From the sequence record ON568341.1: a stretch of 64,000 nt of DNA. One strand, 5' to 3'. The first letter of the stretch is position 1. Each line of letters starts with the position of its first letter. This document shows positions 5,972-53,953 of this stretch, in pieces. A program made the translations under genes and the position numbers. This stretch comes from Escherichia phage UE-S1. The notes below the pieces were generated by a model. The model saw only the letters and a program-made list of their open reading frames with translations. It did not search any database and was not told the origin of the DNA.

Positions 5972-6093
5972 CAAGTACTACTTTGATCGAATAGAGTTAG
6001 TACTGAGTGCTGTTGATGAAAAGACCAGCGACCGTTGCATATGACTGCGATAGAGAGAAACCGAGCAACCCGCTTTCGCTCTCTAATTTTTGG

Positions 6094-6123
6094 TACAAGA
6101 AAGATCCGTCCAAAATTTGAGAA
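6094..6123 (+). repeat. 30-nt direct repeat, copy 2 (tacaagaaagATCcgtccaaaatttgagaa)
   Basis: 27 of 30 identical to the copy at 5942..5971. Confidence 0.6.
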
Positions 6124-6160
6124 ATTCGCAATTCGATAATATCCGATGCCATCATCGTCA

Positions 6161-6188
6161 AGAGAGACTTAATTGTCTCTTTTTTATT
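6161..6188 (+). terminator. intrinsic terminator-like hairpin plus T-run inside the ORF-free region
   Basis: AGAGAGAC ttaatt GTCTCT followed by TTTTT; could mark the 3' end of a small RNA. Confidence 0.45.
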
Positions 6189-6325
6189 ACCTTCATTCCC
6201 CTGCGGGGGGATGTAATAGTCCTCAACAAATCCCGTCAAGTTTTTAAAGTACATTATCATTTTTAGAAGGAACTAGTTTACGAAGTAAACGCAGTGACTT
6301 CTTGAGTTACGAGAGAACGAAGTGA

Positions 6326-6754
6326 ATGAGTAACACAACGAAAATATCCGATAAATCTGAATTAACACAAATGTTATTCAAAGAATATTTTGAGTTTCAG
6401 ATAAAAGACGAACATCAATTACCACAGCAATATTTGAAAAGAATTAAAGATCCGTCAATAATTACTAAAGAAACAAATTTTTATAATAGTATTTTTGATT
6501 TCGTTAAATCAGTTCATACAACAAGACCTATTGTAGTTTTGTTTTTTGATAAATCTATTCCTTTAGTAGTTCCTGAAAATGTATTTTTTATTTCAGAAAC
6601 TGATTTAAATAACCAAAGTACTGTAAGTAGATTAAGAAATTGCTTACTTGTAGTATGTGATTCTTCATTATATAATAACAGAATACTATGGGATAGAAGT
6701 AAACGCAATGCAATTGCAGAAATGAATCCTGAAGTTACATTTATTATTAACTAA
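6326..6754 (+). CDS. hypothetical protein
   Basis: ORF track; RBS-like GAGAGAACGAAG upstream. Confidence 0.5.
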   Translation: MSNTTKISDKSELTQMLFKEYFEFQIKDEHQLPQQYLKRIKDPSIITKETNFYNSIFDFVKSVHTTRPIVVLFFDKSIPLVVPENVFFISETDLNNQSTVSRLRNCLLVVCDSSLYNNRILWDRSKRNAIAEMNPEVTFIIN

Positions 6755-6785
6755 ATACCATATAATAACTCTAAGGAGAGATTTT

Positions 6786-7226
6786 ATGGAAAATATTGAA
6801 AATTTAAGACATGTTATGGATTTTATCATTGATACTGAAGAAGATAATGCTTATGATGAAATCTTACTAACTTTTATTGAAAATAGTTTGTTTTTAAGTT
6901 CTGCTGCACATAGCTGGCATTTACAAAGCCGTTTCTACACAAAGCATCTTCAATTGGATGAACTATACAAAGAGTTACCAGAGTACGTTGATGCATTTGT
7001 TGAGGGTATAATGAATACTCGTGGGGCATTACAGGTAGGTACTGGTAACAGTTATCGATTTACCCACATTGAGGATTGTGTTCCAATTCTTGAAGAGTAT
7101 TCTAGCCAATGTAAAGCAATTCATGCTATGCTCGAAGAGGCAGAAGACTATGGCAGTACTAACACACTAGAAGATATTATGAGTTTTGTTGATGGTGTGC
7201 TTTACAAACTTAAAGTTTTACAATAA
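6786..7226 (+). CDS. hypothetical protein, possibly ferritin/Dps-like
   Basis: AHSWHLQSRFYTKHLQLDELYKELPEYVD loosely resembles the Dps helix A motif (HWNV..F..LH..LD); size fits. Confidence 0.45.
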   Translation: MENIENLRHVMDFIIDTEEDNAYDEILLTFIENSLFLSSAAHSWHLQSRFYTKHLQLDELYKELPEYVDAFVEGIMNTRGALQVGTGNSYRFTHIEDCVPILEEYSSQCKAIHAMLEEAEDYGSTNTLEDIMSFVDGVLYKLKVLQ

Positions 7227-7233
7227 ACTATAT

Positions 7234-7263
7234 GGAGAGTCATAGTGACTCTCCTTTTCTTTT
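7234..7263 (+). terminator. intrinsic terminator
   Basis: GGAGAGTCA tag TGACTCTCC followed by TTTTCTTTT. Confidence 0.6.
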
Positions 7264-7272
7264 GGAGAATAT

Positions 7273-7626
7273 ATGAGTGACTACCGAGTAACATCTGGAC
7301 TAATGGCACGTCTTACTGAAGCAGTTCCTGAAGATGATTATGAAGCTATTTCAGATCGTCTTTTTGACGCAGATTCTAAACTCCATATTACATATGATGG
7401 TGCATTGATTTACAGTACTGATATTGATATCCCTAGCTATGAATTTGAGATTTCTTTTGGTAGTAAATTAACCACTGAAGAATTCGCTCGAAAATGTGAG
7501 CGTGAAGGGTTGTGTATTGATATTAGTTCAGTTCAGCCATATACATCACTGTGGTATGATGGTGCTGATAGTCCAATGTCTACTACATCTTTAAAGGATT
7601 TTCTAAATGCAAATCAAAAAGATTAA
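7273..7626 (+). CDS. hypothetical protein
   Basis: ORF track; RBS GGAGAA. Confidence 0.5.
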   Translation: MSDYRVTSGLMARLTEAVPEDDYEAISDRLFDADSKLHITYDGALIYSTDIDIPSYEFEISFGSKLTTEEFARKCEREGLCIDISSVQPYTSLWYDGADSPMSTTSLKDFLNANQKD

Positions 7627-7999
7627 ATTCCACCAGCATTGTTCTATACATGAATGTGATGATTGTGGTATGAACATGAGTAACATTTATACAGTTTCCT
7701 GTAAAGGATTTAAATTCACTCACGGTGAACCTGCTTATTGTTATGGCACAGAAGAAGGTGATATCGAGGTAGTTCTGAAAGAATTATTCCAATACTTGCA
7801 AAGTACTGGACATGATGTTACAATGCCCACATATTACGAAGATGATTATGACTCACATATAGAAGAAAATACATATTATAATCAATTCGTTCATGGTAAT
7901 GGTTTTATCACATACCTTCATGAGAATGGCATTGAGGTAAAAACTAAGTACACTAGTGATGATTATGAAGGTGATGACTCTATGGAGATTGAAGATTGA
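7607..7999 (+). CDS. hypothetical acidic protein (Cys-rich N-terminus)
   Basis: ORF track. Confidence 0.45.
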   Translation: MQIKKIKFHQHCSIHECDDCGMNMSNIYTVSCKGFKFTHGEPAYCYGTEEGDIEVVLKELFQYLQSTGHDVTMPTYYEDDYDSHIEENTYYNQFVHGNGFITYLHENGIEVKTKYTSDDYEGDDSMEIED

Positions 8000-8577
8000 A
8001 AGCAAAAGACTTAGCAGCACTGTTGATGCAGAATCCTGAAATGGAAGTGTATCATGAGCACATGCATATTAATGATATGTGTGAATCGTACTATTCACCA
8101 GAAAATGTGTCTGGAATTGAAATCACACCAAGTGGTGTATTCATCAGTACTGAATATATTGATTTCGATGACCGTCAAGAAATCAAAACTCCACACAATA
8201 AGCCCAGAATCGGAACTATCGATCTGGTATTCCATCAGGAACGTTTAGTTGAGTACGATGAAGACGATGGTTCTATGGTAACTGATGTTGAAAATGTCGT
8301 TTTTCCTTTTTATAACGCATATGAAGACCCAACTACTGGAGAAGATTTCTTCCGTGAGCTATTCGAGGATGGTCAAGTTTATGGTCAGGATGGTACTGTT
8401 TTTGTACTGGACCCTAACTATGTGCCAGATCACAATACATGGCAATTCTATACACCACAAGATGTAATGGAAGTTAAAGTACTTACGGACATTGACGAAA
8501 AATGGAATCCGGTATATACTACAATGACATATGAAGAGGCTAAAAAATACTTCATTTCTAAATTAAACATTACATAA
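7996..8577 (+). CDS. hypothetical protein
   Basis: ORF track; start overlaps upstream stop. Confidence 0.5.
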   Translation: MKAKDLAALLMQNPEMEVYHEHMHINDMCESYYSPENVSGIEITPSGVFISTEYIDFDDRQEIKTPHNKPRIGTIDLVFHQERLVEYDEDDGSMVTDVENVVFPFYNAYEDPTTGEDFFRELFEDGQVYGQDGTVFVLDPNYVPDHNTWQFYTPQDVMEVKVLTDIDEKWNPVYTTMTYEEAKKYFISKLNIT

Positions 8578-8597
8578 TAGTAAGGATTCATAAATTT

Positions 8598-8879
8598 ATG
8601 AAAATTGTTGCAAGTGCATGGATGAAACTGACAGATGGTACAACTGCTTTTGAAGATTATGGTTTTGTTGAAAGTGTTGATGATTTAAAGCGTTTTAAAC
8701 GTGATAACAGTGATAATGTATTTGAAATTGTATTTACATATCATCACATTTCAAACGATACTGATTATGAACATTATTACTATCATCCTGAGTTATTGGA
8801 AATCCTTGTATGTGATAATCATCATGAAATTGATGAAAATACAGCTTTGATTATGTTGAGTACCGTATCTCCGGTATAA
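8598..8879 (+). CDS. hypothetical protein
   Basis: ORF track. Confidence 0.45.
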   Translation: MKIVASAWMKLTDGTTAFEDYGFVESVDDLKRFKRDNSDNVFEIVFTYHHISNDTDYEHYYYHPELLEILVCDNHHEIDENTALIMLSTVSPV

Positions 8880-8887
8880 GGAGTAAT

Positions 8888-17422: not shown

Positions 17423-17664
17423 TGGATATTGAAAAAGTATCATCTCGTGCAAAACAACTAGCTGACACGTTGGGAGTAGAGTTCAAAATTCCTGATATCA
17501 CCATCGCTAAAGAAAAAGCACAGAATAAAATTAATAAGATGAAAGAATATCTATCTAAACAGGAGCAATATGATTCTGCTGTAGAATTTATTATGAAATC
17601 ATTTAGTAAAGATGATATTTTGGCATTCATCAAATATGTGAAGGTTTCTGGTAACCCTAAATAA
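17422..17664 (+). CDS. hypothetical protein
   Basis: ATG at 17422 overlaps the upstream stop (TAATG); track start is a TTG at 17413. Confidence 0.45.
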   Translation: MDIEKVSSRAKQLADTLGVEFKIPDITIAKEKAQNKINKMKEYLSKQEQYDSAVEFIMKSFSKDDILAFIKYVKVSGNPK

Positions 17665-17709
17665 CAATGAAGAACAAAAGTTCTTCTTAACAATTTGGGA
17701 GATACTATT

Positions 17710-17949
17710 ATGCTCAGTTTTCGTGAACAATTAGCAAAAGGTCAAATTAAGACTCAAGCTCAAACTAATATTCCTAAAAAATCTGCATTTTTGGGAACAA
17801 TTACGGAAGATGGATATTGTGACTATGATGCACCAGAAGATTCATGGTATATTACAAAAGACACAAAACGTAGTAATAGACTTCACAAAAGTACAATAGC
17901 TAGAAAGCATCGAAAAGAATTGAAAAAAATTCGTTTCGGTGAAGAATAA
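17710..17949 (+). CDS. hypothetical basic protein
   Basis: ATG at 17710 preceded by GGGAGA; track begins at a TTG 15 nt upstream. Confidence 0.45.
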   Translation: MLSFREQLAKGQIKTQAQTNIPKKSAFLGTITEDGYCDYDAPEDSWYITKDTKRSNRLHKSTIARKHRKELKKIRFGEE

Positions 17950-17964
17950 TAAAATATAAATTAA

Positions 17965-17992
17965 GGACTCTGTGTTTGGAGTCCTTTCTTTT
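17965..17992 (+). terminator. intrinsic terminator
   Basis: GGACTC tgtgttt GGAGTCC followed by TTTCTTTT. Confidence 0.55.
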
Positions 17993-18003
17993 CGGAGAAC
18001 ATA

Positions 18004-18480
18004 ATGATACATGAGCACCGAGGTAATCTGTTTGAATTGTTCAGTACTGTAACCGATGATGAAACTGCATTGCATATTATTGCACATGGTTGCAACGCCC
18101 AAGGTAAAATGGGTTCTGGTTTTGCAAAAGAACTAAGAAATCGTTACCCAATGGCATATGATGATTATAAAGCATATGAAAAGGAAATGGGATTTCTAAG
18201 AACTGGAAAAATTGCATATTCTTCGGTAAGTGATGATTTACTTATTGCAAACTGTATTACCCAACAATTCTACGGGAATGATGGTAAAAAATATGTAAGT
18301 TATGATGCAATTGATGATATTTTCAAAGAGATAAATTACTTATGTAATATTGAACGTAGTGTTTATGTACACTTTCCGAAAATTGGAGCCGATTTGGGTG
18401 GTGGTAACTGGAACGTTATCAAAGAAATTATTGATCACAGACTGGTCAATGCAGAAAAACACTTATATATTCTAAAATAA
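18004..18480 (+). CDS. macro domain-like (ADP-ribose binding/processing) protein
   Basis: LHIIAHGCNAQGKMGSGFAKELRNRYP matches the macro-domain spacing h-VNAAN-x-G-x-G-GV-x-A-x-x-x-x-W/YP; 158 aa. Confidence 0.5.
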   Translation: MIHEHRGNLFELFSTVTDDETALHIIAHGCNAQGKMGSGFAKELRNRYPMAYDDYKAYEKEMGFLRTGKIAYSSVSDDLLIANCITQQFYGNDGKKYVSYDAIDDIFKEINYLCNIERSVYVHFPKIGADLGGGNWNVIKEIIDHRLVNAEKHLYILK

Positions 18481-38736: not shown

Positions 38737-39330
38737 ATGAAAAAGAATGAATTAGATGAAGCAATTAAAGGTTTATCTAATGTATGTTTTAGTGGCGGGG
38801 CAGCAGGTGCTGACCGCCTTTTTTCAATCTATGCAAAAAATAATGGATTTGAAGTTATTAATTTTTCATTCAAAGGTCATGTGCATAGTGTAGATGAAAG
38901 CACCATATTAGAAATACCATCCAATATTTTATCTGATATTTCTATATTAAATCAACTAAACATTGCATGTTATTCGTTGCAGCGAAAAGTACCAAAGCCT
39001 GGTTCATATGTTTACAACTTACTTGCAAGGAATAGTTATCAGATACTTAATACAGAAAGAATATATTGTATTGCAAATATTACATCGCCAACTAAGGTAA
39101 GTGGTGGTACTGCATGGGCAGTACAGATGTACATTGATTCAGTTGAAAATCCAGAAATTTATTGTTATGATATGAATTCACGTTCTGTGTTTTACTTCGA
39201 TACAGAACTGAAAGAGTTCAAACAATCATTCGTGGTTCCACCACCACATGGTAACTGGACTGGTATTGGTTCACGCAATGCAACAGAAAAACATATGGAA
39301 CATTTTATTACATTTTTCAAGGAAGAATAA
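38737..39330 (+). CDS. hypothetical protein with Rossmann-like GGAAGAD motif (possible SLOG/DprA-like fold)
   Basis: VCFSGGAAGADRLFSIYA near the N-terminus; assignment is tentative. Confidence 0.4.
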   Translation: MKKNELDEAIKGLSNVCFSGGAAGADRLFSIYAKNNGFEVINFSFKGHVHSVDESTILEIPSNILSDISILNQLNIACYSLQRKVPKPGSYVYNLLARNSYQILNTERIYCIANITSPTKVSGGTAWAVQMYIDSVENPEIYCYDMNSRSVFYFDTELKEFKQSFVVPPPHGNWTGIGSRNATEKHMEHFITFFKEE

Positions 39331-40883
39331 TGAAGCAACTACAAGAACTATATCAAAAAATTCTAGATGAAGGCGTAGAAAGCGTTGACCGTACTGGCGT
39401 TGGCACAATCAAACTTATCGGTCAACAAATGCGTTTCGACCTTAAAGATGGTTTCCCAGCAGTGACGACAAAACGTCTAGCTTGGAAATCAATGACTTCA
39501 GAATTACTATGGTTTATTGAAGGCTCCCATGATGAACGTCGCCTTTGTGAAATTTTACATGGAACTCGTGATACAGAAAAGAAAACTATTTGGACAGATA
39601 ATTGTTTAGATCGTGCAAAAAACGATCCCAATCGATTTAATGGGGAAACGGTCGGTAATATGTATGGCATGAATTGGCGTTATCAACCATCTGAACCACA
39701 TAGCTATCAATATATTGAGAGGAAAACATATATTGATGATTATGTTGAAAATCATATTTGTCCAGAAATTACTGATACATTTAATGGAGTTAAAATTCAC
39801 AAATCTGCCAAATGTGGGGATTATGAAGTTATTGGTAAACATCATAATAATATAGTAATTCGTTTCATTAACACCGGTTCATATAAAATTGTACCAAGAA
39901 CTGCGAAAAATATTAAAGATTTTTTCCAACCATCAATTGAAGGGATTGGATATTTGGGTGGTGTAATTCCTGATACATTAACTGCAAAAAAATTATATCA
40001 AATTTGGAAAGATATGATTATTAGAGTGTATAACCCTAGAAAAAATCATTTATCATATGAAAATATAACTGTATGCAAACGTTGGCATAATTTTATGAAT
40101 TTTTACAATGATGCTTTTTCATTATGGGGATTTCAAGAATTTGTTGACAGTGGGTATTCTCATCAACTTGATAAAGATTATTACGGTTCAAACATTTATT
40201 CACCTGATACTTGTATTTTTATATCAGCATCATTAAATAAAACATTAAATGGTGGTGGACATGGGTTTAAAATTTATCTTTATAAAGGTAATGTATTTTA
40301 TTCTAGAACCGATTTACAAGAATCACGTGGTTTAACAAGAAAGGCCAATTTACCAGATGATGTAACAATATTAGAAGATAATGAAACACACGTAGTAAGA
40401 CCAAAAATATACATTGATCAACTACAGCGTTGTATTGATTTAATAAAGAACGATCCAGATTCAAGACGAATTGTTATTACATCATGGAATTCTAGAGATA
40501 TTGAAAATGCAGCATTAGGTATGTGTCACCCATTAGTACAATGGTTTGTTATTAATGGTAAGTTGTCATGTTCATTTTATATGCGTAGTTCTGATAGCTT
40601 CTTAGGCTTACCATTCAACATAGCATCATATGCACTACTTACCCACATGATAGCACAAATATGTTCTCTAGAGGTTGGAGAATTGATTTATACAGGTGGT
40701 GATTGTCACATTTATAAAAACCACGTTGAACAAGTAAAAGAACAACTACAGCGAAAACCACGTGAATTACCTGAATTGTGGCTTGATCCTACCATTACTA
40801 ATATTGAAGATTTCACAATGGATTCTTTCAAATTAGTAAATTACAACCCAATGCCAACAATTAAAGCACCGATGGCTGTATAA
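39330..40883 (+). CDS. td: thymidylate synthase (ThyA type) with ~240 aa in-frame insertion
   Basis: N-terminal 118 aa and C-terminal 156 aa align along bacterial ThyA (DRTGVGT, ELLWF, DPDSRRI, GLPFNIASYALL, active-site CHP region); the insert sits at the variable loop after the W-R motif. Confidence 0.85.
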   Translation: MKQLQELYQKILDEGVESVDRTGVGTIKLIGQQMRFDLKDGFPAVTTKRLAWKSMTSELLWFIEGSHDERRLCEILHGTRDTEKKTIWTDNCLDRAKNDPNRFNGETVGNMYGMNWRYQPSEPHSYQYIERKTYIDDYVENHICPEITDTFNGVKIHKSAKCGDYEVIGKHHNNIVIRFINTGSYKIVPRTAKNIKDFFQPSIEGIGYLGGVIPDTLTAKKLYQIWKDMIIRVYNPRKNHLSYENITVCKRWHNFMNFYNDAFSLWGFQEFVDSGYSHQLDKDYYGSNIYSPDTCIFISASLNKTLNGGGHGFKIYLYKGNVFYSRTDLQESRGLTRKANLPDDVTILEDNETHVVRPKIYIDQLQRCIDLIKNDPDSRRIVITSWNSRDIENAALGMCHPLVQWFVINGKLSCSFYMRSSDSFLGLPFNIASYALLTHMIAQICSLEVGELIYTGGDCHIYKNHVEQVKEQLQRKPRELPELWLDPTITNIEDFTMDSFKLVNYNPMPTIKAPMAV

Positions 40884-40890
40884 ACGAAAA

Positions 40891-40916
40891 GGGAGAACAT
40901 CAGTTCTCCCTTTTTT
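40891..40916. terminator. bidirectional intrinsic terminator between convergent genes
   Basis: GGGAGAAC atca GTTCTCCC flanked by an A-run upstream and TTTTTT downstream. Confidence 0.6.
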
Positions 40917-40917
40917 A

Positions 40918-43188
40918 TTATCTAATTGTTACCAACGTTCTTCCGTCGAAACGTACATCAGGAGTTGAAGGTATACTGAACACTACGTTAGTGCCGTTAA
41001 ACGTCACGCTATCGACCTCAACACGAGTATAGACACCTGGACTAACCTGTTCCTGTATCTCTGCTGTGACGATGTTTGAGGCTGTTACAGTAAGGGTGTA
41101 GTAGTTACCACTTAATACCCAAGATGAAATGGTAAATGCATCGGTTCTTACTGAACCTGAACCAATTGGAACCCATTGACCTTGAACTTTTTGCATTGAA
41201 GTACGCTCGGTATTGGAGTATGCAATCATACCATCAACACCAACAGAGTTATCAATAGTAGCTAGTACTGGTAATTGAATACCATATCTATTGAAACGTG
41301 TTCTAATAATTCCATTATCATAGATACTTACATCAGCATAATTCCCCATTGAAAGTTTCAAATCTGAATCAACTAATTGCATTGTACTTTGGTTAGTAGG
41401 GCTTTCTAAAGTAATTATTCCATTTGGTAATAAGCTTAAGTTTTTAAATTTATTCGAATTACCATTAAAATTTGTATTAGCGTTGAAAGTACTAGTTCCA
41501 TTAACTACTATTGTGTTTTCTGCGGCATCACCTAATATTGTATTTCGTTGAACAATCAAGTTACCATTAGCAGTAATATTAGTCGCTGTAGTATCACCAT
41601 TTAATTTTGTATTAGCGTTGAAAGTACTAGTAGCATTAACTACCAATGTGTTTGTTGCGTTGTCACCTAATATAGTATCACTTTGAACATTCAAATTACC
41701 ACTAGCAGTAATATTAGTCGCTGTGGTATCGCCATTTAATTTACTTGTACCATCAACTACGATATTACTATTAAATTTCGTATTAGATTTAAAAGTACTA
41801 GTAGCATTAACTACCAATGTGTTTGCTGCGGTGTCACCTAATATTGTATTGCTTTGAACATTCAAATTACCACTAGCAGTAATATTACTAGCTGAAGTAT
41901 CACCAATTAATCTACTTGTACCATCAACTACGATATTACCATGAAAATCGCTTTCACCGTTTTTAAATTCCACTTGTACCGAATACATAGAACTAAATGA
42001 AATTATATTACTACTTGCACTTATACCAACATTAGTATTAGTTGGGTTATCGAAGTGTAATATTGGAGTTAATGCTGGTGTTGTTGTTGTTTGATAGAGC
42101 GTTAATGATGAGTTGTTAATTCGCACACGTTCTGTTCCGGCAGTACTAAATCCAATAGCATCATCAGCAGGATGAAAAATACCAGTATTAGTATCAGACC
42201 ATTTTTCAGGATCATTACCAGGATTACTTGTTGGGTCGAATGGTTTATTATTAAATGCTATCGCTGGTGCGGAAGCACTCCCATATACAACACCAAAACG
42301 ACCAGACCCTATTGTACCATCATCATACATTGAATCGCCTGTTCTACGTAAACATTCAATTACAACATTATCTATGGAAGTTTGAACTGTACCAGCATTA
42401 GTTCTGAATTGACGATTATTTGCAATCATAATAGTGTTATCATATAACACAGAAGCTGCTGAAATACTTGTTCTTGATTGACGAAGGCGTATGTTTTTAT
42501 CTTCAGTAATAATAATCCAATCACCATCAGATAGTGCTGTTTGATTCATTGGCACACCGGAAGCAAACGGCTTAGTTAAATCATCATCAGTTGCTAAATT
42601 AACAAGTCCACTATGCCCAGTACTAGGGATGGAAGTTGAAATAATTCTTGCAAAAGCGTTTGTTACGAGCTTTGCACCAGATATATTTGGATTAGAATCA
42701 ACATAATATAAAATTTCAACCCAATTCCCCTGTCCAGTTGGGTTAGTTGGAGTAAATGTTACTGGGCTGGTTTTTGGTTTATTCGCTTCAAAATGTGCTT
42801 GGGCGGCATCCATAATACCACGCACAACATAATAATCACCACTAAGTGATGATGAGGGTGCAGGTAGTGGGCTTTGGGCTAACGGTGGGTCAATATCATC
42901 TGGAATCGGATTATATGTACCAACAAACTGTAAACCACTAGTTACTGAATCTGGTAATTGAGATGTAAGAAGTTTACCATTTGCATCTAAGTTAGCGAAA
43001 CGCCTGTATGCCATTGAACCATCTTCAAAATCCAGAACACCCTCGAACGATTTCCATGCTTTATTGTATCTAATCATCCCTGATCTTATTACATCAGCGG
43101 TTTCTTTTGATGGTGCTTTTGGTAATTCTAAAAAAGATTTACTATCAATAATTACACCACCATCACCTCTAATTCGATTTATACTCAT
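40918..43188 (-). CDS. tail fiber protein with tandem ~40 aa repeats
   Basis: 756 aa, Asn/Thr/Ser/Gly-rich; repeats NTLVVNATSTF-x-NTK-x-NGDTTATNITASGNLNVQ. Confidence 0.65.
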   Translation of the reverse strand: MSINRIRGDGGVIIDSKSFLELPKAPSKETADVIRSGMIRYNKAWKSFEGVLDFEDGSMAYRRFANLDANGKLLTSQLPDSVTSGLQFVGTYNPIPDDIDPPLAQSPLPAPSSSLSGDYYVVRGIMDAAQAHFEANKPKTSPVTFTPTNPTGQGNWVEILYYVDSNPNISGAKLVTNAFARIISTSIPSTGHSGLVNLATDDDLTKPFASGVPMNQTALSDGDWIIITEDKNIRLRQSRTSISAASVLYDNTIMIANNRQFRTNAGTVQTSIDNVVIECLRRTGDSMYDDGTIGSGRFGVVYGSASAPAIAFNNKPFDPTSNPGNDPEKWSDTNTGIFHPADDAIGFSTAGTERVRINNSSLTLYQTTTTPALTPILHFDNPTNTNVGISASSNIISFSSMYSVQVEFKNGESDFHGNIVVDGTSRLIGDTSASNITASGNLNVQSNTILGDTAANTLVVNATSTFKSNTKFNSNIVVDGTSKLNGDTTATNITASGNLNVQSDTILGDNATNTLVVNATSTFNANTKLNGDTTATNITANGNLIVQRNTILGDAAENTIVVNGTSTFNANTNFNGNSNKFKNLSLLPNGIITLESPTNQSTMQLVDSDLKLSMGNYADVSIYDNGIIRTRFNRYGIQLPVLATIDNSVGVDGMIAYSNTERTSMQKVQGQWVPIGSGSVRTDAFTISSWVLSGNYYTLTVTASNIVTAEIQEQVSPGVYTRVEVDSVTFNGTNVVFSIPSTPDVRFDGRTLVTIR
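41460..41940 (-). repeat. tandem ~120-bp coding repeats inside the tail fiber gene (approximate bounds)
   Basis: Near-identical DNA units visible around 41.46-41.94 kb matching the protein repeats. Confidence 0.5.
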
Positions 43189-49601: not shown

Positions 49602-49673
49602 TTATACCCTCCATGATAACCTTGTTAATATGTATATATTTAGTTTTATTCTTCTGTTAACTAATAATTTGTC

Positions 49674-49709
49674 AAAATAAAAAACCAGACTTATTGATAA
49701 CAAGTCTGG
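49674..49709 (-). terminator. intrinsic terminator (minus strand)
   Basis: On the minus strand CCAGACTT guuaucaau AAGTCTGG followed by TTTTTTATTTT, downstream of gene 49718..50617. Confidence 0.55.
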
Positions 49710-49717
49710 ATTCATTT

Positions 49718-50617
49718 TTACTTACCAGAGATAACAATCTTCCCACTGAATGTAACATCAGAAGTAAAGATTACGTCACCAGTATTGCTAATTTGTGTGC
49801 CAGTTACTACCAATTCAAATGGTGATGTCGAAACACTACCAGGTGTCTTATTTGCATAAATCGAAACATACAAATTTTCTGGTGATTGTTTGTGTTCAGA
49901 TGCTGGAATTGTGATGGTGAACTCATCTTTATTAGAAATCCAATCATCTTGGTTTATCAATTTACTATAAGGTACTGTCATTGTTGTTGCTCCTATAATG
50001 TTTACTATAACATTTATATAATCCGTAATTTTGCCAATTGCATCTATTGTAATATCACCAGCACCGTTCACTACTACAGATGTTTGAAATACTGAATCCA
50101 ATGTCCTACTACCAGGAGAATCACCATGTAGTTGTATCATGATATCAGGCCCACGCCCATGTACAGATGCTGGAATGGTGTATGTATAATGGTCGGTAGT
50201 ATCTGGTACTAATGTAAATGCAGATACTGGTACAGTTTCAGTTGTTACATATGAACTATCAGTTTCATGTGAACTACCTTTGAATGATTTCCAAATACCA
50301 AGGTCTTTAATATAAATTTGAAGAACATTAGTTTCATCAACTAAAAAATACACATCACCATCTGACCCAATAGATTCATCCGGGGCACTGGTCCCACGCA
50401 AAATACCAGAACTACCAGTGCCACTATGTGCGTTTAGATATCCTAACGTAACTAGATGTGTGTTAGCGGTCGGGTCACCTGCTGAAATTGGAAGAAGTTT
50501 TGTTCCTGAGTAGTTTTGTATTTGCACGACACTACCATTTGTGGTAATCTGTGCACCATTCTTCCCAAGAATGAAGGATTTCTTCATTGTTCCTTCTAAA
50601 TTAGAAAAAACTGCCAT
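49718..50617 (-). CDS. tail fiber/spike protein sharing an N-terminal module with the upstream gene
   Basis: N-terminus MAVFSNLEGTMKKSFILGKNGAQ nearly identical to that of gene 50634..52775; RBS AAGGAG. Confidence 0.55.
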   Translation of the reverse strand: MAVFSNLEGTMKKSFILGKNGAQITTNGSVVQIQNYSGTKLLPISAGDPTANTHLVTLGYLNAHSGTGSSGILRGTSAPDESIGSDGDVYFLVDETNVLQIYIKDLGIWKSFKGSSHETDSSYVTTETVPVSAFTLVPDTTDHYTYTIPASVHGRGPDIMIQLHGDSPGSRTLDSVFQTSVVVNGAGDITIDAIGKITDYINVIVNIIGATTMTVPYSKLINQDDWISNKDEFTITIPASEHKQSPENLYVSIYANKTPGSVSTSPFELVVTGTQISNTGDVIFTSDVTFSGKIVISGK

Positions 50618-50633
50618 TTTAATTTAATCTCCT

Positions 50634-52775
50634 TTATGGTAGGGTTATATACGTTACTGGCTGGGCAGCTTTTAATGATGCACCAGCGGCAGTTGCTGTT
50701 ATGATGGGATCTGCAATATCAATTCTATATACATTATTAACAACATATACTGCACGAGTTATATACGTTTTCAAATCATCACCATTTTCCCCAGCACCAG
50801 ATATAATGATCTCAGTACCAGCCGCTTTTGCATATTGGTTATCACCCCATGACACACCCAATGCTTCTATATACGTTTGTCCTACTGTCGTTTGTCTAAT
50901 TGTGTCATATTTTCCAAAAAATGAACCACCCACTGTTACAATATATTTTCCACCAGATTTTTTATGTATAATCGTCCCTTCTGGGAAGTATCTTCCTCCA
51001 GGAAAAGTATCATATGGAATATAATATTGCTCAACTACAGGTATTAGTACTGGACCACGGTGACCAGTACCGTCAATTGCAGTTGTTACTTTGAAATTAT
51101 TAGATGATTGATCGATTCTATCTACGTACATTTTAGAAAAACTATATTTTGAAACATTACAATCATCTTGAACAACACAGTTAGTCCAATTAGTATAAGT
51201 ATATTTAGAGCGAGTATACATACCCCCACCTTCACCTTCAGTGGAAAGGTGTTGTCCTATGACATCTAATTCTTTTGTTCTGATATCACTAAATTTAGAT
51301 GAAGATGGTAGACCACGCCAAAGAATTTTAGAACAAGTAATATTACTTAATTCTGTACTATTCAACCAATTATCCGATCCAGAAGTATAAACGATTACGG
51401 AAGACTCTGGTATATAGAGATTGGATATTTTAAAGTTTCTAGGTGGACCAGCAAATCGACCACCAGTTACACCCCAGTTAATAGATACCATACGGTTTGT
51501 GACTGTAGGATCATTAAGTAAATGTCCGGTTAAACCATCAATTACAAACTCTTTTGAACCATAAGTTATTACACCAGCAGTTGTTAACCCAGTACCAACG
51601 GAAATTAAAGATGATGGGTACACCTCATTATCAAGTATTTTGAAATCCATTCCCAATTCGACATGGATACATTGTCTAACATTATAAAGTCTATTATTCT
51701 TAATAACAAAGTTTCTAACATATTGTGTATCAGGGGCATCCAAATCATAAGGACCAGACCCAGCAACACCAATACCAATACCCCAGTTTGAAAGCGGGAT
51801 TGGTGCATCAGAACCATCAACATTTTCAATTATATTACCTTCAATTACAAAACCATCAGGATAATGTGAGTTAATAACGTTCAATTCAATTGCATCCCCG
51901 TAGATATCATGAATGTGGTTGTATGAATAACGACCAACCTTCATTTTCTCACCAGTTCCTTGTTGGAGAACGCCATATTTACATTTAGTCATTTCATTAA
52001 AGCAAAAATCTATTGTGCCAGATTGGGTCATACCTTGCATTAAGAACGCAGCAGTACTGGTAATGTTAATAAATTTATTAAAATAAAATTTACCATCCCC
52101 GCCAAAGAATTTCAAATAACAGCCAGTAAGTGTGGTGAATTGAATTTGTGAATTAATAACGGATATCATAGTTCCACCATTACCCGTAATAGTGCCACCA
52201 AACCAAGTTACATCTTCCAAATATACTGCTTTTTTGATACGATAATTACCACCTGCTTGAATTTGTATTTTATTTTCTTTTGCATAAGTTGCACACAAAT
52301 TTACAGCTTCAGTGTCATCGGTTTCCCCATCACCTTTCGCACCAAATTCTTCTGGTGTTATATAGAACTGTGCTTGTTGAACTGTACCGCCAGTAACAAG
52401 GCCAATGAAATCACCACCATTTTTACTTGATAGTGCTTTTTTATTAATGTAGAGTGATTTAATCCAAGTACCATTAGTTTTTACGAAGATATCAACAATA
52501 CCATCTTCATCAATTTGAAAATAAGTATTATTATTTTTTCCAATATCATCTGACGGTGATTGAACACCAAATAATGCATTTGGATTATCTTCAAGGTATC
52601 TAATATTAACTGCTGAATCTTGGTCTGATGGTGTTCCTACTTTTAGTGGTAGAAACTTTTCACCTAGATAATCTTTTATCGATACGGAATCATTGACGAA
52701 ATTTATCGAAGCACCATTTTTACCCAATATCATTTTTGGTTTCATGGTCCCTTCAAAATTAGAAAATACTGCCAT
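50634..52775 (-). CDS. tailspike/fiber protein with shared N-terminal module and large divergent C-terminal domain
   Basis: Start reassigned to internal Met (MAVFSNFEGTMK) preceded by AGGGGGG; the track's 44 aa N-terminal extension lacks an RBS; ~713 aa. Confidence 0.55.
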   Translation of the reverse strand: MAVFSNFEGTMKPKMILGKNGASINFVNDSVSIKDYLGEKFLPLKVGTPSDQDSAVNIRYLEDNPNALFGVQSPSDDIGKNNNTYFQIDEDGIVDIFVKTNGTWIKSLYINKKALSSKNGGDFIGLVTGGTVQQAQFYITPEEFGAKGDGETDDTEAVNLCATYAKENKIQIQAGGNYRIKKAVYLEDVTWFGGTITGNGGTMISVINSQIQFTTLTGCYLKFFGGDGKFYFNKFINITSTAAFLMQGMTQSGTIDFCFNEMTKCKYGVLQQGTGEKMKVGRYSYNHIHDIYGDAIELNVINSHYPDGFVIEGNIIENVDGSDAPIPLSNWGIGIGVAGSGPYDLDAPDTQYVRNFVIKNNRLYNVRQCIHVELGMDFKILDNEVYPSSLISVGTGLTTAGVITYGSKEFVIDGLTGHLLNDPTVTNRMVSINWGVTGGRFAGPPRNFKISNLYIPESSVIVYTSGSDNWLNSTELSNITCSKILWRGLPSSSKFSDIRTKELDVIGQHLSTEGEGGGMYTRSKYTYTNWTNCVVQDDCNVSKYSFSKMYVDRIDQSSNNFKVTTAIDGTGHRGPVLIPVVEQYYIPYDTFPGGRYFPEGTIIHKKSGGKYIVTVGGSFFGKYDTIRQTTVGQTYIEALGVSWGDNQYAKAAGTEIIISGAGENGDDLKTYITRAVYVVNNVYRIDIADPIITATAAGASLKAAQPVTYITLP

Positions 52776-52788
52776 TATGACACCCCCC

Positions 52789-53916
52789 TTAAATATTATC
52801 TTGAATAGGTTGGACCGGAGCTTGCCATGAAAGAGTACAAATAATTTCCATTTTACCATAAGGACTATTATTAACTGAATCATTGAATACACATGAAATA
52901 ATTTCATCTACATCTGAAACTTCATGATTTGTTTCATTAACAATAAAACGCATCTGGTGATTAATATCAAAGTAGGATGTTGGTGCAATGACAGTACCAC
53001 CAATATTTTCGTTTGCTTCACCACCGAAACGAACAAACATATCGGTTACTGGAATGGAGTAAGGTTGAAGAATATTTACATCAATATTTGAAACCACATA
53101 ACCAGCAGGACAAGTTCCTATAACCAATAGTGCGTTTGTCCATGAATGGTCAATGATATTTCTTATAGAAATTGTATCTTTACCTGGTGCACCCGGTTCA
53201 CCTTGCTTACCTTGAATACCTTGTGGACCTTCTTTACCACGGAATAAAATACCACTACTCCATTCTTTTGATGGTGGGGTGGTAGTTGTTACTTCATCTA
53301 CATAATAAAGTTTACCATCAGTGTTGTTATAGAAACAATAATCAACTGGGAGGTTTTCTATGCTTGGAAATTGATCACCACTACCGTCAATATGGAAACG
53401 ACCACGTGGACCTTGCTCGCCACGGAAAGGAATACCATCACTCCATGTTGCTGTTACTTTTTGATAAAAATATAATTTACCATCTTGTGTATTGTAAAAT
53501 GTATAGTTATCAAAAAGACCAGAACTTGGAAAATTAGTTCCCGCACTATCGATATGAAAAGGCTTACCAGCTTCACCAGTATCACCTTTACCAAATTCTA
53601 CACTAATCCATGTACTGGTTTGTTCTTGTGCATCATTTGATTTAAAATACAAAGTACTTGTGTTATTTGCCAAGCTAAGGTAGCACCAACCAAGTGGTTC
53701 ACCAACTTTGAATTTATCAGACGGAACTTCAAAACCAATCTCGTTTGGATAAAAGTTCTTACCGTTTTCACCATTTTGTCCTACAACAAGACCTAAATCT
53801 TGAATTGTATTATCGGTATAGGTTACAATTAAATGACCAGCAGCATTAATAACTAGACTTTTGATGCCGGAGTTATTACATGAACCACTGGACCCATTGT
53901 TAAATGAAATTGTCAT
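52789..53916 (-). CDS. fiber-like protein with collagen-like Gly-X-Y repeats
   Basis: GEQGPRGRF and GKEGPQGIQGKQGEPGAPGKD triplet runs. Confidence 0.55.
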   Translation of the reverse strand: MTISFNNGSSGSCNNSGIKSLVINAAGHLIVTYTDNTIQDLGLVVGQNGENGKNFYPNEIGFEVPSDKFKVGEPLGWCYLSLANNTSTLYFKSNDAQEQTSTWISVEFGKGDTGEAGKPFHIDSAGTNFPSSGLFDNYTFYNTQDGKLYFYQKVTATWSDGIPFRGEQGPRGRFHIDGSGDQFPSIENLPVDYCFYNNTDGKLYYVDEVTTTTPPSKEWSSGILFRGKEGPQGIQGKQGEPGAPGKDTISIRNIIDHSWTNALLVIGTCPAGYVVSNIDVNILQPYSIPVTDMFVRFGGEANENIGGTVIAPTSYFDINHQMRFIVNETNHEVSDVDEIISCVFNDSVNNSPYGKMEIICTLSWQAPVQPIQDNI

Positions 53917-53953
53917 ATTATTTCCCTTTTATGAGTTAATGTCATATACCAAT

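Follow-up and report, generated by a model that had tools for sequence, protein, structure and literature searches.

A shared N-terminal module joins a conserved virion protein and a colanidase in the tail genes of Escherichia phage UE-S1

Two adjacent genes with a common N-terminus

The window analysed here is a stretch of 64,000 nucleotides (nt) from Escherichia phage UE-S1 (ON568341.1), and our subject is a pair of adjacent genes on its minus strand, A and B, which encode proteins of 299 and 713 amino acids (aa). The order on that strand is a gene for a 375-aa tail protein, B, A and then a gene for a 1827-aa fibre (Table 1), and the gaps between the first three genes measure 13 and 16 nt. 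Both genes lie where the first-pass annotation had placed them, and the product of A is 100% identical to UES1_521. At the DNA level, this region of about 5 kb is 92.6% identical to Escherichia phage ph0011 and 86-87% identical to 121Q (86.6%), PBECO4, phAPEC6 and other Asteriusvirus; UE-S1 is evidently an Asteriusvirus, that is, a 121Q/PBECO4-like jumbo coliphage. The counterparts of the four genes in 121Q are gp574 (structural protein), gp573 (colanic acid-degrading protein), gp572 (structural protein) and gp571 (long tail fibre proximal subunit).

As the first-pass annotation had proposed, the products of A and B share an N-terminal module of about 110 aa and diverge beyond it. A BLASTP comparison of A with B, the latter read from the ATG at 52775, gave 54/147 identities (37%, E 2e-22 with compositional adjustment) over residues 1 to ~110 of both proteins, while the other A-B segments were noise. 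When either N-terminus was searched against the whole window with tblastn, the sole match was the other copy (40% over 109 aa, E 2.6e-23), and a profile hidden Markov model (HMM) of the module, run against all open reading frames (ORFs) of the window, recovered A and B only. The module is ~106-112 aa long, with 37-40% identity between A and B; 16 columns are invariant across 21-22 module sequences of both types (18 across 21 in one alignment), and the predicted models of A and B present the secondary-structure elements of the module in the same order. The idea that the N-termini resemble each other by chance or through their composition is excluded by the BLASTP, tblastn and profile results, the last of which recover both A-type and B-type proteins, and the invariant columns weigh against it as well; nothing was found in its favour and we give it practically no credence. 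Exactly two places match the module in each Asteriusvirus genome, and the presence of two copies is confined to Asteriusvirus-type records. Searches of the Pfam and NCBIfam copies used returned no model covering the module or gene A, and the predicted fold of the module matched no solved adaptor domain.

The start of gene B is the ATG at 52775, a correction that the relatives make decisive. The frame is open from 52907, giving a 757-aa ORF, but the additional 44 codons would overlap the 3' end of the upstream 375-aa gene, whose stop codon is at 52789-52791. In 121Q, PBECO4 and phAPEC6 an in-frame stop occurs seven codons upstream of the B ATG, B is 2142 nt long as annotated in 121Q and PBECO4, and homologues of the module, distant ones included, all start at residue 1. 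Since the frame of the relatives is closed seven codons before the ATG, the extension is an accident of this genome, and the earlier suspicion that it is not translated is borne out.

Table 1. Features of the tail-gene region of the UE-S1 window.
Feature	Position	Strand	Evidence or remark
Promoter-like site upstream of the three-gene unit	53917-53945		consensus match only
375-aa Rak2-like tail protein, first gene of the three-gene unit	52789..53916	-	121Q gp574, RaK2 ORF062w, CBB_228; phrog_13565 'tail protein', E 1e-218
Shine-Dalgarno of gene B, AAGGGGGGTG / GGGGGGTG, 5 nt before the ATG	52781..52788	-	read from sequence
Gene B, 713 aa	50634..52775	-	start corrected to 52775
B residues 1-67, sub-module 1, N-terminal adaptor (MAVFSNFEGTMK...)	52575..52775	-	profile positions 1-67; three predicted beta-strands and a short helix, pLDDT (predicted local distance difference test) 74-92
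B residues 68-106, sub-module 2, probable trimerisation unit belonging to a widespread ~45-aa repeat	52458..52574	-	
B residues ~107-713 and stop, colanidase cassette (neck, right-handed beta-helix, C-terminal domains)	50634..52457	-	PDB 6E0V, phrog_6117
Shine-Dalgarno of gene A, AAGGAG, 11 nt before the start	50629-50634	-	read from sequence
Gene A, 299 aa	49718-50617	-	
A residues 1-112, ancestral module copy (adaptor and repeat unit)	50282..50617	-	58-67% identity to single copies in other genera
A residues 118-207, beta-sandwich d2, most variable of the family	49997..50266	-	segment replaced by colanidase in hybrid P0078
A residues 208-299 and stop, beta-sandwich d3, tandem duplicate of d2	49718..49996	-	pLDDT 75-96
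Intrinsic-terminator-like hairpin, 11-bp stem then TTTTTTATTT	49685..49709	-	consensus scan; begins 9 nt past the A stop
Promoter-like site for the fibre gene	49648-49675		consensus match only
Long tail fibre gene, 1827 aa	44118-49601	-	121Q gp571

A conserved virion protein and a colanidase

The homologue search with A returned 71 proteins of 39-100% identity, 70 of which are 284-309 aa long and align at 100% query coverage, the exception being P0071 (203 aa, 72% query coverage). The phages that encode them infect Cronobacter, Serratia, Yersinia, Erwinia and Salmonella, among other hosts, and the proteins include GAP32_221, that of fHe-Yen9-04 and several from Erwinia phages; A itself matches phrog_10468 (E 7e-87). 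The order of 375-aa tail protein, orthologue of A and long fibre recurs in GAP32, Serratia phage BF, CBB and Xanthomonas phage XaC1, and in CBB the orthologues of the 375-aa protein (CBB_228) and of A (CBB_227), together with CBB_226, were detected in virions by mass spectrometry (CBB paper). The AlphaFold model of A (mean pLDDT 76.6) consists of the N-terminal module followed by two beta-sandwich domains, d2 and d3, which are 29% identical to each other (E 2e-7), the HMM of d2 matching d3 at E 2.6e-4. Mean identity within the family is highest in the module (60-68%), lowest in d2 (~40%) and 52-55% in d3. None of the 71 homologues has a replaced C-terminus, and no enzymatic or recognised receptor-binding fold was found in the C-terminal part of A. 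Because the homologues are full-length and this C-terminus is never replaced, A is taken to be a conserved structural protein and not a swappable receptor binder, so the divergent receptor-binding part ascribed to it by the first-pass annotation has to be given up. We also considered A as a connector of the T4 gp9 type: no homology to T4 gp9 was found, and the gp9 fold (N-terminal coiled coil, beta-sandwich, C-terminal beta-barrel) is not the one predicted for A.

The case of B is different, since its large central region, in which an enzymatic beta-helix had been suspected, is that of a depolymerase of the phi92 gp150 type, a hydrolase according to the literature, as was already established knowledge. 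Residues 101-712 of B can be aligned with the crystallised phi92 gp150 (PDB 6E0V/6E0W, E 1.3e-235), and no large gaps are needed, and the protein matches phrog_6117 'colanic acid degradation' (E 3e-258). It also has a weak pectate-lyase-like Pfam match, and the WcaM models (WcaM-like, PF27800) match it at E 1e-25, under the NCBIfam equivalog cut-off, as expected of a phage relative. PBECO4 AGC35227.1, to which B is 93.3% identical, is gp547/ORF547 because it is the 547th coding sequence (CDS) counting from the first CDS, AGC34681.1. Purified ORF547 reportedly broke down colanic acid and enabled T7 to infect mucoid mutants. In a 17-sequence colanidase alignment, B holds the invariant residues N286, I291, G293, D294, I296, E297, L298, N299, W331-G336 and R367-Q368-C369 as well as H289 and D290, which are nearly invariant (>=90%); the motif H-D-I-x-G-D-x-I-E-L-N and some 100 other invariant columns are intact, and the invariant acidic residues are candidates for the catalytic ones. 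With homology running across the whole beta-helix body, B is evidently a phage colanidase of the phi92 gp150 / PBECO4 ORF547 kind. The BF17 paper ties gp547 of PBECO4 to the enzyme for colanic acid degradation described by Kim et al. (2015); phi92 gp150 figures in the literature as a tailspike colanidase and is reported to act on colanic acid by hydrolysing its beta-1,4 Glc-Fuc bond (Xu et al. 2025). Carried over from this literature on its orthologue, the activity of B would be the depolymerisation of colanic acid.

Within Asteriusvirus the cargo of B is constant, at 86-98% identity, and hence there is no sign of the ongoing depolymerase exchange or dual receptor specificity that had been suggested for the pair. 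The tail-operon context and the module shared with a protein family detected in virions are indirect signs that B may be a virion-attached tailspike.

Distribution and origin of the module

A profile made from 21 module sequences was run against 1.84 billion representative proteins and matched 590 of them at E <=1e-3. The matches fall into two classes, adaptor alone and repeat alone. In the first, profile positions 1 to ~67-73 occur by themselves, always from residue 1 (in one case residue 6) of proteins that are 99-1366 aa long and whose bodies are unrelated, among them a pectate-lyase-like beta-helix followed by a Peptidase_S74 chaperone (P0142), a Beta_helix domain (P0154) and BNR/sialidase-like domains (P0146, P0156 and P0186). 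In the second, positions ~65-112 recur as 2-15 dispersed tandem repeats in long proteins, where they alternate with collagen G-X-Y runs, as in the LPXTG-anchored P0121. Residues 1-67 thus appear, from these matches, to be an adaptor, invariably placed at the extreme N-terminus and combined in other phages with cargo of many kinds, while residues ~68-110 are a collagen-associated repeat and probably a trimerisation unit. The first 21 residues of the module are nearly invariant, and the module also exists as a stand-alone protein, namely RaK2 ORF061w (115 aa) and P0120 (113 aa), the latter in a different lineage. Such a pattern, extreme N-terminal, separate and stand-alone, is by analogy typical of particle-binding domains, and we infer a docking role for the module.

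The ~45-aa repeat, which can be written G..P....G.DGD.Y.D..TG.lY.K..G.W and lies at 52458-52580 and 50282-50425 of the window, is very widespread (P0121, P0124 and others). Together with collagen triple-helix runs, it occurs in bacterial surface proteins and in giant-virus collagen-like proteins, and no model in the Pfam copy searched covers it. The 375-aa tail protein upstream of B carries short collagen-like G-X-Y runs. A homology of its repeats to the second half of the module, suspected by eye, was supported neither by BLAST nor by HMM comparison.

An unrelated contig of ~120 kb with NrdD/NrdG genes encodes two tailspikes, at 8001-10343 and 16571-18343, 6 kb apart, one being P0142 and the other of the P0154 type. 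Both open with the 67-residue adaptor (MAIFS[NS]L.GTM.KIFKLGK.GA) and continue with different beta-helix bodies, and since their genes share one contig, this unrelated phage also seems to mount two spikes on the adaptor. The two proteins bear the label PF27114 'Phage_tail_beta', which could not be mapped to residues.

The cargo has a history of its own, for the cassette also circulates, on different adaptors, in unrelated coliphages. Elsewhere the colanidase core is joined to PF26208 (phi92-like), PF18668, PF12571, PF09008 (P22 head-binding) and PF03906 (T7 fibre N-terminus), and phages outside the Rak2 group match B from residue ~96 onward only. The junction between module and colanidase falls at residues ~100-107, just past the invariant Trp104, at an S-x-Y-[VI] motif that also follows the module of A and occurs in gp150. 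Given that the core sits on at least five other adaptors and that the adaptor carries other enzymes, the arrangement of an anchor with a swappable distal domain, which the first-pass annotation had read into both genes, holds at the family level; it does not hold for A, conserved over its full length, and the anchoring itself is a role that the module may have. The graft is old, since we found no nucleotide-level similarity to phages outside the Rak2 group and no anomaly of base composition over B.

A metagenomic protein of 792 aa, P0078 (Logan SRR31729320 contig, 6320-8698), begins with the module, continues with the colanidase and closes with the last beta-sandwich domain of A (d3, E 9e-14; E 2e-24 in another search). 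Its gene lies after the long-fibre genes and adjoins thymidylate synthase in a distant Rak2-like phage. From its sequence, P0078 looks like an A-like scaffold in which the colanidase has taken the place of d2.

In the other Rak2-like genera (GAP32, BF, CBB, XaC1) there is one copy of the module, in the orthologue of A, and no colanidase at the locus. These single copies are 58-67% identical to the module of A versus 35-41% to that of B, and because they resemble A more, we regard B as a derived paralogue whose insertion, between the tail protein and A, took place in the Asteriusvirus lineage. The module of A would then be the ancestral copy, and B a diverged copy fused to a horizontally mobile colanidase cassette. 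A more distant relative carries an A-type protein (60% identical) and a B-type protein (63% identical); since a longest contig of 38,492 bp is recorded for both, they probably share one contig.

RaK2 and its relatives offer a further arrangement, with nothing but the module at the syntenic site. After the orthologue of the 375-aa protein RaK2 encodes ORF061w (6001-6348 of the locus compared), the 115-aa module, 59-60% identical to residues 1-110 of A, and the next gene, ORF060w (6513-8045), is the orthologue of a 756-aa fibre-like protein of the window (121Q gp569). The locus has no long fibre gene, gp570, A beta-sandwich domains or colanidase, and the CBB paper states that RaK2 has no homologue of the long fibre. 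As only the module is left at a locus that has no fibre homologue, the beta-sandwich domains of A and the fibre appear to have been lost together in RaK2 while the module was kept. RaK2 gp098, of the Alcyoneusvirus paper, was considered as a relative of these genes and rejected; the relative is ORF061w.

Several features of the surroundings were recorded as well. Orthologues of the 375-aa tail protein occupy the equivalent position in RaK2, GAP32, BF, CBB and XaC1. The hairpin behind A is a putative terminator, by consensus match, that would end the unit of the 375-aa gene, B and A ahead of the long tail fibre gene; the scan found 15 terminator-like sites in all against 5.3 expected, and promoter-like sites showed no enrichment as a class. 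The 756-aa fibre-like protein (40918-43188, minus strand) is ~100 aa longer than 121Q gp569 owing to extra ~30-aa repeats (GDT.A.NITASGNLN.Q..T.LGD), with both ends 89-100% identical to gp569, and the difference is one of repeat number in a distal tail protein. A homology of its C-terminus to d3 of A, suspected by eye, was not supported by BLAST or HMM. The thymidylate synthase (td) ORF (39330-40883, plus strand) encodes 517 aa, versus 309 aa in 121Q, and has an in-frame insertion of ~230 aa between td residues ~118 and ~352, with diverged flanks (~70% identity) and identical gene ends. The inserted segment gave no Pfam match and no group I intron or other Rfam match; an intein-like element, a domain insertion and a mosaic are candidates. 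In the gap between these convergent genes, at 40826-40923, sub-threshold Rfam matches at E ~0.006 to sraA (plus strand) and MicX (minus strand) most likely mark a bidirectional terminator hairpin.

Possible function of the module and comparison with known systems

On the homology, the domain boundaries, the insertion in one genus, the identity of the enzyme and its true start, we build an account that we consider probable. The locus is a three-gene tail unit of the 375-aa tail protein, B and A, in which A, a virion protein conserved in all Rak2-like phages, comprises the adaptor (~1-67), a small repeat that probably trimerises the chains (~68-112) and the two duplicated beta-sandwich domains, and B is the module joined to the colanidase. 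The adaptor would plug a trimer of B into the periphery of the baseplate, in the same kind of socket as A; the beta-helix of B would hydrolyse colanic acid, so that the phage could reach its receptor on mucoid, capsule-overproducing cells; and A would keep its conserved structural role, possibly tied to the long tail fibre. We infer that the adaptor docks, that the chains are trimeric and where they sit on the virion. Several points weigh against this account. We found no experiment or structure that places the module on the baseplate, and no virion proteomics evidence for B; the models are monomeric, which makes the trimeric state of the chains an assumption; the B copy is ~40% identical to that of A, so that their partners may differ; and the colanidase family is assigned in PHROGs to 'moron, auxiliary metabolic gene and host takeover', not to 'tail'. 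The mass-spectrometry table of phAPEC6 omits both A and B, but this absence is uninformative because the GenBank record (MK817115.1) has no CDS for either gene, although the colanidase (713 aa) and A (298 aa) ORFs are intact between gp253 and gp256, the numbering skipping gp254 and gp255.

A rather unlikely reading, though one to be kept in mind, makes A a connector or accessory of the long tail fibre, the module anchoring A in the baseplate and the beta-sandwiches holding the 1827-aa fibre, with B competing for sockets or riding on the fibre base. In all the genera examined the gene next downstream of A is that of the long tail fibre, which would agree with it, as would the joint loss in RaK2, which has no fibre homologue and keeps the 115-aa module only, followed by the 756-aa orthologue; such a role would refine the account given above for A and does not exclude it. 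The module could instead be nothing more than a folding or trimerisation nucleus, with attachment, if any, via other surfaces. Many non-phage proteins do contain its second half as a repeat, in alternation with collagen G-X-Y runs, and the sole structural resemblance of that repeat is to the collagen XV/XVIII trimerisation domains and phage head-fibre trimers; but the first 67 residues form a separate unit, always at the extreme N-terminus and nearly invariant over the first 21, which occurs without the repeat on other spikes, and the whole module survives alone in RaK2, so that we judge this to be quite improbable. We hold it still less credible that B acts in soluble form, set free at lysis as an auxiliary 'moron' to remove colanic acid and biofilm for the progeny, and is not borne on the virion. 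The PHROGs category and the missing proteomic evidence for B in virions would suit such an enzyme, and the purified protein alone is said to restore T7 infection of mucoid cells. However, B lies inside a tail-gene operon and carries the module of a protein whose orthologue is proven in virions, and homologous colanidases in phi92-like phages and podoviruses are annotated as tailspikes, with P22 head-binding or T7 fibre N-termini.

Returning to the account of an adaptor-docked colanidase, we suggest tentatively, as a generalisation that falls a little short of an even chance, that residues 1-67 (MA[VI]FSN.EGT...GK.G) may be a hitherto uncharacterised portable baseplate 'plug' of Rak2-like jumbo phages and of at least one unrelated large lineage, on which the colanidase, other beta-helix depolymerases and BNR/sialidase-like domains are mounted, and that the stand-alone 115-aa protein of RaK2 may fill a socket after the loss of the fibre. 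If so, jumbo phages could be retargeted by swapping cargo at the S-x-Y-[VI] junction, and P0078 would be a natural example of such a swap inside an A scaffold.

Nothing new follows from the enzyme itself, which was already annotated, solved in a homologue and biochemically characterised, and the pair is an ordinary case of modular phage tail proteins, a familiar architecture with a lineage-specific adaptor. What is added is anatomical: the graft site at residues ~100-107, the reuse by B of the N-terminus of a conserved virion protein, and the composition of that N-terminus from a portable adaptor and a collagen-type repeat. For A, the novelty is its domain anatomy together with this reuse. The junction offers a rational place at which depolymerase cargo could be engineered onto jumbo coliphages, and the adaptor is a candidate docking element to be sought in future structures of Asteriusvirus or Rak2-like baseplates.

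Compared with the Rak2-like virion structural protein family (phrog_10468; GAP32_221, CBB_227, 121Q gp572), A is a full-length member with no substantive difference. B matches phi92 gp150 end to end over residues 101-712, with the family motifs intact, whereas gp150-type proteins have another N-terminal part of ~190 aa (PF26208) with no similarity to the first 100 residues of B; identity to the phi92 group is ~56-57%, with no nucleotide-level match. The module has neither the D1 beta-sandwich nor the T4 gp10-like (XD) fold of the CBA120/RaK2-type assembly domains. As in those systems, however, namely CBA120 TSP1-4, RaK2 gp526-534 and the KP32-type RBP1/RBP2, an N-terminal module is common to several tail proteins of one phage, here the two of each Asteriusvirus genome, their bodies are different, and cargo is exchanged between phages at the boundary.

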